Below, one piece after another: positions 19,211 to 55,857 of a DNA stretch of 64,000 nucleotides. The stretch comes from Bacteroidales bacterium. GTDB lineage: Bacteria > Bacteroidota > Bacteroidia > Bacteroidales > UBA1715. Each line of letters opens with the position of its first letter. The stretch's first letter is position 1. The stretch covers positions 565 through 64,564 of the forward strand of contig JAKSTZ010000008.1 in assembly GCA_024402335.1 (NCBI GenBank), written 5' to 3'. Under the pieces are notes generated by a model. That model was not told the DNA's origin and searched no databases. It saw only the letters and a program-made list of their open reading frames with translations. A program made the translations under genes and the position numbers.

Positions 19211-19801
19211 ATGAAGAATTCCGAAACGGAACAAAAAATCAAAAATGCGGCAAGTATCGTATTCAAGCAGAAAGGTTTTAAGGAAGCCCGCACACGCGAC
19301 ATTGCCGAACAAGCCGGAGTAAATCTTGCTTTAATAAACTATTACTATAAAAGCAAAGAAGCATTATTCAACGAGATAATGACCGAATCCATACTGACAT
19401 TTAAACAAAGTCTTTGCAAATACATAAACGACGAAACCACAACTGCACAAGAAAAAATAACCATAATAGTAAACAACTACTTATCGTTACTGCAACAAGA
19501 ACCTAACCTTCCTATTTTTTTAGTAAAGGAGCTATATAATTCCAGCGAACTACTAAATAAAATAAAGCCAGAGGAAGTCTTGAAAAATAGTCTGCTTCAG
19601 AAACAGCTTCAAGAAATGGGGAAAACAAACGAAAAAAAAAAAAACCTGATAATAAACACCATGTCACTTGTTGTGCTTCCTATTATCGGAAAGCCAATAA
19701 TACAAGCATTCTGCAGCAAAAATGAGCAAGAATACCTTACATTTTTAGAAGAAAGAAAAACAAATATACCTATTTGGATAAAGTCTATGTTTAATCTATA
19801 A
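19211..19801 (+). CDS. TetR/AcrR family transcriptional regulator
   Basis: 196 aa. The N-terminal HTH is ARTRDIAEQAGVNLALINYYYKSKEALF. An A13 tract at 19632-19644 encodes EKKKN. Confidence 0.88.
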   Translation: MKNSETEQKIKNAASIVFKQKGFKEARTRDIAEQAGVNLALINYYYKSKEALFNEIMTESILTFKQSLCKYINDETTTAQEKITIIVNNYLSLLQQEPNLPIFLVKELYNSSELLNKIKPEEVLKNSLLQKQLQEMGKTNEKKKNLIINTMSLVVLPIIGKPIIQAFCSKNEQEYLTFLEERKTNIPIWIKSMFNL

Positions 19802-53661: not shown

Positions 53662-54768
53662 ATGGAACAATTTCTAGTCTCAGCACGAAAATATAGACCT
53701 GCAACATTCGCAACCGTAGTCGGACAAGAATCTATTACCAAGACTCTTAAAAACTCTATTGCGACGAAACATCTTGGACAAGCATACTTATTCTGCGGTC
53801 CTCGTGGTGTTGGCAAAACAACTTGCGCCCGTATTTTCGCTAAAACTATCAATTGTACCAATTTAACCCCAGACGGTGAAGCTTGTAACGAGTGTAATTC
53901 GTGCAAATCTTTCAACGAAAGCGCCTCGCTAAACATCACAGAACTTGATGCTGCATCAAACAACTCGGTTGATGATATTCGTTCCCTTATCGACAGTGTA
54001 CGAATTCCACCTCAAAGTGGAGATTATAGCGTATATATCATTGACGAGGTCCACATGCTTTCGGCACAAGCCTTCAACGCCTTTCTAAAGACATTGGAAG
54101 AACCACCTCGTTATGCTATTTTCATATTAGCAACGACAGAAAAACATAAGATTCTTCCTACTATCCTTTCACGTTGTCAAATATTTGATTTCAACCGTAT
54201 AAAGGTTACAGACATAGCTAATCATCTTGCTAACGTTGCCCAAAAAGAAGGCATAACAATAGATGCAGACGCGGTTGGTACTATAGCTGAAAAAGCAAAC
54301 GGCGGATTACGTGACGCTCTATCTATTTTTGACCAAATTGTAAGTTTTTCAGGAACAAATATTACCTATCAAAATGTCATTGATAATCTAAACCTATTAG
54401 ATTATGAATATTTCTTCAAAATGACGGATTATTTTCTAACAAGTGATTATGTTTCTGCACTTCTTGCTTTTGACCAAATACTAAACAAAGGATTTGACGA
54501 ACGAAATTTCCTTGTTGGACTATGCTCACACTTCCGAGATTTATTAGTAAGCAAAGATCCTAATACCATACAATTGCTCGAAGTAAGCGAAAAGGCAAAA
54601 CAAAGATATTCCGAACAAGCAGCAAAATGTCAGGTTCAATTCTTATTTGCAGCACTTGATTTAGCAAATAAGTTTGAAGAAAAATACAAAGAAAGTAACA
54701 ACAAACGCCTTCATGTAGAATTGGCATTATTACAACTTTGTAATATATTAAAAAAAAAACTAGCGTAG
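53662..54768 (+). CDS. dnaX: DNA polymerase III subunit gamma/tau, frame-0 product (clamp-loader core only)
   Basis: 368 aa. Walker A is GPRGVGKTT, the zinc module is CNECNSCKSF, Walker B is IIDEVHMLS and the SRC motif is SRCQIFDF. It terminates as KKKLA*, two codons after an A10 run. Confidence 0.93.
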   Translation: MEQFLVSARKYRPATFATVVGQESITKTLKNSIATKHLGQAYLFCGPRGVGKTTCARIFAKTINCTNLTPDGEACNECNSCKSFNESASLNITELDAASNNSVDDIRSLIDSVRIPPQSGDYSVYIIDEVHMLSAQAFNAFLKTLEEPPRYAIFILATTEKHKILPTILSRCQIFDFNRIKVTDIANHLANVAQKEGITIDADAVGTIAEKANGGLRDALSIFDQIVSFSGTNITYQNVIDNLNLLDYEYFFKMTDYFLTSDYVSALLAFDQILNKGFDERNFLVGLCSHFRDLLVSKDPNTIQLLEVSEKAKQRYSEQAAKCQVQFLFAALDLANKFEEKYKESNNKRLHVELALLQLCNILKKKLA

Positions 54769-55052
54769 CCAACGAAACGCCTCAACAAGCAAGCGCCCCA
54801 AAAGTTGAAGAAAAAAAATATGTTTCTAAAAGTACTGCTACAGTAAAAGTAACTCAAACTCAATACGTTTTCAATACACAGAAGAAACAAGCTGAGGAAA
54901 AACCGAACACGTCTTTTGCTCATACTGAATTAACAAAAATTCCAGAAACAAAGATTACAGAGACAAACGAGCCTAGTAAATTCGATACTTTTGTCGAAAA
55001 AAATGCATTTGTCAAACAATTAAAAGACAAATTCAATTTTAATCCAATGTAA
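54750..55052 (+). CDS. dnaX: dnaX -1 frame extension (tau-like C-terminal segment; no start codon of its own)
   Basis: I translated codon by codon from the A10 run. The -1 frame has 100 sense codons with no stop and ends ...KFDTFVEKNAFVKQLKDKFNFNPM*. The TAA is at 55050-55052, 1 nt before the ispE ATG. Confidence 0.55.
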   Translation, partial: KKKTSVANETPQQASAPKVEEKKYVSKSTATVKVTQTQYVFNTQKKQAEEKPNTSFAHTELTKIPETKITETNEPSKFDTFVEKNAFVKQLKDKFNFNPM

Positions 55053-55053
55053 T

Positions 55054-55857
55054 ATGATAGTTTTTCCTAATGCAAAAATTAACATAGGTCTCTATATCAC
55101 AGAAAAAAGACCTGACGGATTCCACGAGATTGAAACGGTATTCTATCCTGTCCATGGTTTTGCCGATTGTTTAGAGTTTTTTGAATCAAAAGAACTCACA
55201 TTTGAAAACTTAGGAATACAAATAGACGCACCTGTAGAAAAGAATCTATGTATAAAAGCATGGAACATTTTCAAAAAATACTACGACATTCCCCCTATCC
55301 ACATGGTACTTTACAAAAACATACCATTCGGAGGAGGATTAGGCGGAGGTTCAGCAGACGCATCTTTCTTACTATCAGCAATTAACGAACATTTCAACAT
55401 TGGCGTTCCTACCGAAGAATTAGAAAAAATGGCGTTAGAAATTGGTAGCGATTGTCCATTTTTTATAAACAACAAACCAATATTCGCGCAAGGCAGAGGC
55501 GAAATTTTCTCACCTATTTCAATGTCACTGGCTAACTATTGGATAGTATTAGTAAAACCAGACGTAGCTGTAGGAACAGCAGAAGCATACCGTGGTGTTA
55601 CACCATACAAAAGACAACAAAAACTTGCAGATGTAATACCGACAAACATTGCAGATTGGAAAGGCATAGTAGTAAACGACTTTGAACAATCTATTTTCAA
55701 ATCCCATCCTGAAATTGAAGCAGCAAAAAACAAATTATATGAAGCAGGAGCCGTTTACGCTTCCATGAGTGGTAGCGGTGCAACGGTTTACGGCTTATTC
55801 GAAAAAGAAACAAAAATTTCAAACATGCCTGTTGTTTGGCAGGGATATTTACAATAA
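55054..55857 (+). CDS. ispE: 4-(cytidine 5'-diphospho)-2-C-methyl-D-erythritol kinase
   Basis: 267 aa. The GHMP kinase motif is PFGGGLGGGSADAS and the N-terminus is FPNAKINIGLYI. Confidence 0.92.
   Translation: MIVFPNAKINIGLYITEKRPDGFHEIETVFYPVHGFADCLEFFESKELTFENLGIQIDAPVEKNLCIKAWNIFKKYYDIPPIHMVLYKNIPFGGGLGGGSADASFLLSAINEHFNIGVPTEELEKMALEIGSDCPFFINNKPIFAQGRGEIFSPISMSLANYWIVLVKPDVAVGTAEAYRGVTPYKRQQKLADVIPTNIADWKGIVVNDFEQSIFKSHPEIEAAKNKLYEAGAVYASMSGSGATVYGLFEKETKISNMPVVWQGYLQ

Follow-up and report, generated by a model that had tools for sequence, protein, structure and literature searches.

In Escherichia coli, dnaX is decoded with a -1 ribosomal frameshift that yields the short product. The shift site, A_AAA_AAG, is preceded by a Shine-Dalgarno-like element and followed by a stem-loop. 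In Caulobacter, the short form of DnaX (gamma) is produced by ClpXP proteolysis. Transcriptional slippage on an A9 run serves dnaX of Thermus thermophilus (Larsen et al. 2000, as related in passages of PMC1088944 and PMC5009743). Closest to the gene considered here are the dnaX genes split into two open reading frames (ORFs) that were reported by Antonov et al. (2013; Nucleic Acids Research 41:6514, PMC3711429), in which recoding is required for the long form, tau. The available passages of that paper count 17 such genes in 12 genera, nine of them with an A10 run (including Flavobacterium johnsoniae, F. psychrophilum, Cytophaga hutchinsonii, several Chlorobi and Coraliomargarita), and also place a two-ORF dnaX in Capnocytophaga; transcriptional realignment is proposed there by analogy with Thermus, the dnaX cluster not having been tested experimentally in that work. 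Here we describe a dnaX gene with the same two-ORF anatomy, and thus another case of this described class, in a 64,000-nucleotide (nt) stretch of DNA (the window; GenBank assembly GCA_024402335.1, contig JAKSTZ010000008.1, positions 565 to 64,564) from a gut-metagenome Bacteroidales bacterium.

The dnaX gene of the window is split at a run of ten adenines (A10), so tau can only be made by recoding. We consider it a recoded gene for both gamma- and tau-like subunits, in which tau would arise through transcriptional slippage that adds one A, a reading to which we assign a probability of about 0.7. The locus comprises:

53662..54768, forward strand: dnaX frame-0 ORF, 368 amino acids (aa), gamma-like, the expected product of unslipped A10 transcripts (from the ORF list and Pfam)
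54728..54745, forward strand: predicted nascent-RNA hairpin of 7 bp, stems 54728-54734/54739-54745, loop 54735-54738 (from folding)
54750..54759, forward strand: A10 slippery run, the proposed recoding site, adjoining the 3' end of the last domain III helix
54766..54768, forward strand: TAG stop of the gamma frame, two codons (six bases) past the A10 run
54759..55052, forward strand: tau-specific extension in the -1 frame, 95 codons to the TAA at 55050-55052, predicted to complete a 463-aa tau
54975..55049, forward strand: conserved C-terminal motif of Bacteroidota tau, SKFDTFVEKNAFVKQLKDKFNFNPM (from alignment, a hidden Markov model (HMM) and the model of a relative)
55054..55857, forward strand: ispE (GHMP kinase), ATG 1 nt past the tau stop, outside the recoding device

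After the run, frame 0 reads CTA GCG TAG and the protein ends in ...CNILKKKLA. The third frame likewise stops at once, so that an A9 transcript would encode 366 aa and an A12 transcript 367 aa. The -1 frame is open from 54750 to its TAA, a total of 100 codons (KKKTSVANETPQQ...KDKFNFNPM), and ATG, GTG and TTG are all absent ahead of its final sense codon; the ORF list of the window has no entry in this extension. When the sequence was reread, the positions in the first-pass annotation were reproduced (A10 at 54750-54759, TAG at 54766-54768, the 368-aa ORF, the -1 frame running to 55050-55052 and the ispE ATG at 55054), as were its -1 frame peptide and the remark that this frame lacks start codons and escapes the ORF list.

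Judging from its domains and motifs, the protein is DnaX, the bacterial clamp-loader gamma/tau subunit. Pfam families DNA_pol3_delta2 (PF13177, 1.9e-45), DNAX_ATPase_lid (PF22608, 2.7e-13) and DNA_pol3_gamma3 (PF12169, 1.7e-08), corresponding to clamp-loader domains I-III, cover residues 21-362 of the 368-aa product, in agreement with the earlier description of frame 0 as a gamma-like clamp-loader core. A Walker A motif (GPRGVGKTT), the SRC motif (LSRCQ) and a Cys4 zinc module (C-x-x-C...C-x-x-C) are present and invariant in a 52-sequence alignment, and for a 76%-identical relative Foldseek found a match of the structural model to E. coli gamma chains over ~357 residues (E 1e-26).

The A10 run at 54750-54759 is not an assembly artefact. 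Contigs from five sequencing runs (X1, X2, X3, X4 and X6), which come from at least two studies, span it with zero indels, and single-nucleotide polymorphisms (SNPs) relative to the window mark four of the five as different strains. In the nearest species, whose DnaX core is 94% identical, A10 with identical flanks was recovered from three separate samples. The first-pass annotation had offered a 1-nt homopolymer error of sequencing or assembly as its alternative, in which case the true gene would have A11 and be one plain 463-aa ORF, and had proposed inspecting independent assemblies for the length of the run. Run length does differ between assemblies in a sister species, which shows both A10 and A11 contigs. 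Against this, the uniform A10 of the five independent assemblies of different strains, its recurrence in the three samples of the 94%-identical species and the presence of the split design in isolate genomes, as well as in complete genomes listed by Antonov et al. (2013), refute the error and leave it a negligible probability.

The independent contigs across the run provided 15 SNPs within dnaX and its extension. Upstream of the run all five are synonymous in frame 0, while among the ten between 54763 and 55030 seven are synonymous in the -1 frame and one in frame 0; the other three are conservative changes in the -1 frame (S>N, A>T and K>R). Purifying selection thus switches frame exactly at the run. 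Three indels, of 6, 21 and 6 nt, separate the extension from that of the 94%-identical species, and the -1 frame is open in all relatives of the clade (see below) whose contig covers the extension. Taken on this evidence, the extension is under purifying selection in the -1 frame.

Homology of the extension to tau was established through clade relatives and a motif HMM. The last 25 residues align with the Bacteroidota tau C-terminus (consensus EKF..L..KNP.L..LK..F.LD), and with a 35-aa HMM built from 71 distant taus the window fragment ranks first among 1826 six-frame fragments (E 0.015), matching at the extreme C-terminus. Most of the remainder is fast-evolving linker, on which Pfam found no family. 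The 100-aa extension alone had no match among 5.8 billion proteins, as would be expected of a linker that evolves fast in a frame without a start codon. The annotation's claim that a one-base shift at the A-run would give a 463-aa tau-like protein therefore stands, and the comparison with DnaX C-termini of relatives that it had proposed bears it out: the extension is coding and its C-terminus is homologous to those of Bacteroidota tau. Its chance estimate does not. It had assumed 7% stops and arrived at a probability of order 1e-3; in the window, which has a G+C content of 37.5%, 4.8% of codons are stops when all six frames are counted, and 1.6% of stop-to-stop intervals are at least 100 codons long, so openness alone is only mildly unusual. 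The case is far stronger than chance on the combined evidence of independent assemblies, SNP pattern, indel lengths, homology and conservation.

The same observations bear on the idea that the gene is decaying, in which case the clamp loader of this lineage would work with gamma alone and the extension would be a nonfunctional relic. The shortness of the clade extensions (95-130 aa), which have lost the ~80-aa globular C-terminal domain of other Bacteroidota taus, is what such decay might look like. A frame that is open in every species examined with a contig covering the extension, indels in multiples of three, SNPs that are mainly synonymous in the -1 frame and a conserved terminal motif make it highly improbable.

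We predict that translation of transcripts copied faithfully with A10 ends at the TAG two codons past the run and gives the 368-aa gamma-like protein. While on A10, RNA polymerase would hold an all-rA:dT hybrid in which the transcript can realign, and a share of the mRNAs would come to carry A11; ordinary translation of these would proceed into the 95-codon extension and yield the 463-aa tau-like protein with its terminal motif. Transcripts with A9 or A12 would again give gamma-length products. A short nascent-RNA hairpin 4 nt behind the run would boost slippage.

Comparison across the phylum is consistent with such a device. Among 80 Bacteroidota dnaX loci from representative species, whose identity to the window is 52-67%, 58 have a run of A9-A13 directly after domain III, almost always exactly A10. 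Tau is in frame in 40 of these 58, and a shift of ±1 nt meets a stop within 2-16 codons (the Thermus register). In a further 14 the gamma stop lies just after the run and tau is open for ~200-230 codons, one extra nucleotide being needed to reach it. The last four, L012, L028, L066 (A10) and L071 (A9), need two extra nucleotides or one fewer. The conservation of both off-frame stops beside in-frame runs in 40 loci is understandable only if shifted products are made routinely.

The window's own clade (relatives with DnaX cores 79-94% identical to it) repeats this spread of registers on a smaller scale:

A10, split form: the window, L085-87, L090, L083/84, L091, L092 and the outgroup L094-96
A11, split form: L093
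A11, in-frame form: L081/82 and L088
A12, in-frame form: L089

The A-run was never lost in the clade relatives examined, and both off-frames always stop at 366-370 aa; conservation of the run and the frame break, which the first-pass annotation had proposed to look for together with a coding signature, is thus found alongside the SNP and indel patterns described above. L081/82 (A11) and L083/84 (A10) are strains of a single species, at 98.7% nucleotide identity: tau is in frame in L081 and L082 (482 aa), whereas L083 and L084 are split (368 aa). In these loci the run is at 2590 (1790 in L084). The contigs of this sister species, of 28 and 85 kb, indicate DNA assemblies. Each of the three registers is represented among species, and within a single species A10 and A11 alleles are both present. 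If RNA polymerase generates transcripts of varied run length, every register would give both products, with selection directed at run length and the stops beside the run, not at register. This pattern matches what would be predicted of a transcriptional-slippage device, and favours one.

Polymorphism of this kind could also reflect phase variation at the DNA level, with replication slippage generating A10 and A11 subpopulations and tau made only by A11 cells. The coexistence of A10 and A11 at 98.7% nucleotide identity and the A10, A11 and A12 alleles across the clade are in its favour. Consensus contigs are nevertheless uniformly A10 in five samples, and at 40 loci in-frame runs have kept both off-frame stops beside them. 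In E. coli, moreover, tau is essential and links the polymerase to the clamp loader and helicase, so A10 cells would be inviable if they did not recode at the level of RNA or the ribosome. We regard phase variation as very unlikely.

Transcriptional slippage is further suggested by RNA structure on the 5' side of the run. The window hairpin at 54728-54745 ends 4 nt short of the A-run, and 98.6% of its cells are paired in an alignment of 10 clade species. Two of its pairs covary (GC/AU and GC/AU/GU) at synonymous third-codon positions, in Leu/Cys and Leu/Asn codons, with a covariation score attained by 0 of 500 shuffles. Over 64 Bacteroidota loci, the 40 nt upstream of the run fold more stably than shuffles (mean z -0.84, p 8e-6). 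At 41 of the 64 loci (64%), versus 22% of control windows from the same genes, a hairpin of 5 bp or more ends 0-4 nt short of the run, and these run-abutting hairpins are built from unrelated sequences in different orders. The hairpin behind the run probably stimulates slippage, or it may only tune efficiency, since a long A homopolymer could slip unaided.

The principal competitor is programmed -1 ribosomal frameshifting on A_AAA_AAA, the long product coming from the shift, unlike in E. coli dnaX. Frame 0 contains two overlapping A_AAA_AAA heptamers in phase; 14 of the 18 split loci, as well as the window clade, need exactly -1; and the review of Atkins et al. counts some reversed dnaX genes as frameshifting candidates, such as that of Chlorobium phaeobacteroides with its short A-run. 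The signals of the E. coli site are missing from the window. Its 70 nt downstream of the run show no 3' structure (z -0.03), and over the 64 loci the 40 nt downstream fold no better than shuffles (mean z -0.23); the conserved structure is found 5' of the run, and none on its 3' side. An E-value scan with Rfam found no DnaX frameshift element, the site is not A_AAA_AAG (C, not G, follows the run) and no AGGAGG-like Shine-Dalgarno sequence occurs in the ~20 nt upstream. Bacteroidota in general make little use of Shine-Dalgarno pairing, which makes a 5' stimulator of the E. coli type unlikely. The run is kept at 10, while 7 A's suffice for a ribosomal shift, and L012, L028, L066 and L071, which need a +1 or -2 shift, are beyond the reach of -1 frameshifting. 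We infer from this comparative evidence that the shift would occur at transcription rather than on the ribosome, and consider ribosomal frameshifting unlikely. Of the two mechanisms that the first-pass annotation had left side by side, RNA polymerase slippage is thus favoured and a -1 ribosomal slip less so.

Several points weigh against transcriptional slippage at this locus or soften the evidence for it. The A_AAA_AAA heptamers are in the correct phase, and a -1 ribosomal shift there would give an identical tau. The only metatranscriptome with the window gene covers 53702-54065, short of the run, and in the split relative L039 rumen RNA contigs end at the run or are ambiguous. The window hairpin is AU-rich and weak (40-nt upstream fold of -4.5 kcal/mol, z -0.9), its covariation rests on 10 sequences, and the enrichment of run-abutting hairpins (binomial p 7e-13) ignores phylogeny. 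Some run lengths come from metagenome-assembled genomes (MAGs) or assemblies whose platform is not known, and homopolymer errors could therefore lie behind individual registers.

In RNA run X13, one low-depth contig of L039 (4078-4095) combines a G4-to-G3 change with A10-to-A11; because its register is unchanged, it is probably a strain variant and no proof of slippage. Other L039 RNA contigs end exactly at the run, which could be due to length heterogeneity or simply to low coverage. Four further RNA runs gave no coverage.

The tau of the window is short in comparison with other Bacteroidota. Longer relatives, of 550-620 aa, follow the run with a disordered linker, then a compact domain and finally a pair of terminal helices. 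In the AlphaFold model of P0020 the compact domain occupies residues 447-530 (helix-helix-strand-helix-strand, with a predicted local distance difference test score of ~90) and the terminal helices 544-565, to which the terminal motif of the window corresponds. A profile of the compact region has a weak full-length match to DnaA domain I (4tps_B, E 0.0047), and single-sequence Pfam searches of C-terminal regions gave isolated weak matches (DnaX_C 0.027, DnaA_N 0.068); Foldseek with the full-length model returned clamp-loader cores only and nothing on the C-terminal domain. The taus of the window clade (the window and L085-L093) are unusually short at 463-497 aa: the compact ~80-aa domain is missing, and the linker and the terminal 25-aa motif remain. 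The next outgroup, L094-96 (77% identical), retains the compact domain and has a tau of 550 aa. In E. coli it is the extreme C-terminus of tau that binds the alpha subunit, and by analogy the terminal motif would be a partner-binding or polymerase-tethering element, which the short clade tau could help to map in its minimal form.

Taken together, these comparisons suggest a broader scheme that we put forward tentatively, at a little under even odds. The A-run and 5' hairpin would form a phylum-wide slippage module in which register is nearly neutral; the window clade would have a minimal tau of disordered linker and ~25-aa motif, having lost a DnaA-domain-I-like module; and UAG readthrough in a few relatives may replace slippage. 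With slippage efficient enough to make register near-neutral, the 'standard' product would be free to flip in evolution.

The relatives in question, L031, L041 and L046, are gut or rumen Bacteroidales whose dnaX has no A-run. Their gamma part of 366-367 aa ends at an in-frame TAG (at 2788, 4102 and 4099, respectively) in the conserved context TAG ATT GCA/GCT AGG, after which the same frame runs on for 189-254 codons and matches the tau C-terminal HMM with E 1e-12 to 2e-23. GC-rich hairpins lie downstream. Because TAG also ends ordinary long ORFs in these loci, it is not reassigned genome-wide, and the in-frame TAG may be a stop-codon readthrough route to tau. We found no paper describing such a TAG type of dnaX in the literature. 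In another locus, L047 (4100-4897), a 383-aa dnaX ORF overlaps at its end with the tau C-terminal region, which is in the +1 frame. The junction lacks a homopolymer, and the layout reflects either an indel error in the MAG or some other recoding arrangement.

Two other homopolymers of the window deserve mention. A second run, A8 at 54811-54818, lies inside the tau extension, where the -1 frame reads GAA GAA AAA AAA TAT; tau would be cut short by slippage at this A8. The longest homopolymer of the window is an in-frame A13 (19632-19644) within a 196-aa ORF (19211-19801), which may encode a TetR-like regulator and which sits just upstream of a 1427-aa ORF. The A13 run is slippage-prone and could give truncated forms or phase variation of the 196-aa ORF.

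Downstream of dnaX, the ispE ATG is separated from the gamma stop by 285 nt. The adjacency of dnaX and ispE and their tight spacing also occur in clade relatives. Since the tau stop lies 1 nt from the ispE ATG and this spacing is recurrent, ispE may be translationally coupled to the tau frame, through ribosomes that finish tau.

Gene callers annotate such genes as a 368-aa "gamma/tau" protein followed by an empty 285-bp gap. Because they miss the extension, an essential part of the replisome is missing from the annotations of many Bacteroidota genomes and MAGs, common gut lineages included. The essential long form would here hinge on a transcription "error". The locus is further evidence of how strongly the production of both tau and gamma is selected, lineages arriving at it by interchangeable routes; the comparative data provide a model of how slippage efficiency may be set, with run length fixed at 10, register free and a hairpin on the 5' side.

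Among systems involving other genes, Shigella flexneri mxiE uses transcriptional slippage to fuse two ORFs, and shares with the window dnaX, to which it is unrelated, the need of slippage for the longer product. In the IS630 transposase of Roseiflexus, transcriptional slippage is stimulated by a hairpin (Penno et al. 2015, as related in passages of PMC5009743). On that account both cases place a stem-loop of the nascent RNA immediately 5' of the slippage motif and need slippage for the full-length protein; they differ in that the Roseiflexus motif is T5C5 with a specific one-base deletion, whereas the window has a long A homopolymer and the effect of its hairpin is predicted.

Among dnaX genes, Caulobacter arrives at the same tau/gamma pair by a post-translational route. 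The E. coli gene resembles that of the window in giving two products with a common N-terminus, split after domain III; there, however, the shift is ribosomal and the short product is the shifted one, and none of the three E. coli signals is present in the window. Thermus dnaX, as far as the passages cited above describe it, likewise places an A homopolymer after the clamp-loader core with nearby stops in the alternative frames, and makes both tau and gamma from a mixed mRNA pool, as we propose for the window. Its templated length encodes tau and its slipped transcripts gamma, whereas in the window the templated length encodes gamma and the +1 transcript would encode tau; the Thermus register is instead found in 40 of the 80 relatives and in L081, L082, L088 and L089.

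This inverted polarity, to which the first-pass annotation had drawn attention, is borne out; the novelty that it implied is not, for Antonov et al. (2013, PMC3711429) had already reported it. The available passages of that paper, in a search that was not exhaustive, mention no in-frame A10 runs in relatives, occurrence in three registers or covarying 5' hairpin. In the genes they describe, as in that of the window, the gamma part closes with A10 and soon meets a zero-frame stop, and the tau C-terminus is encoded in the -1 frame; transcriptional realignment is the proposed mechanism in both. The window differs from those genes in belonging to an uncultured gut Bacteroidales and in having an extension of 95 codons that lacks the globular C-terminal domain. 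The design is therefore already known, and the window adds one more example of it in gut Bacteroidales.

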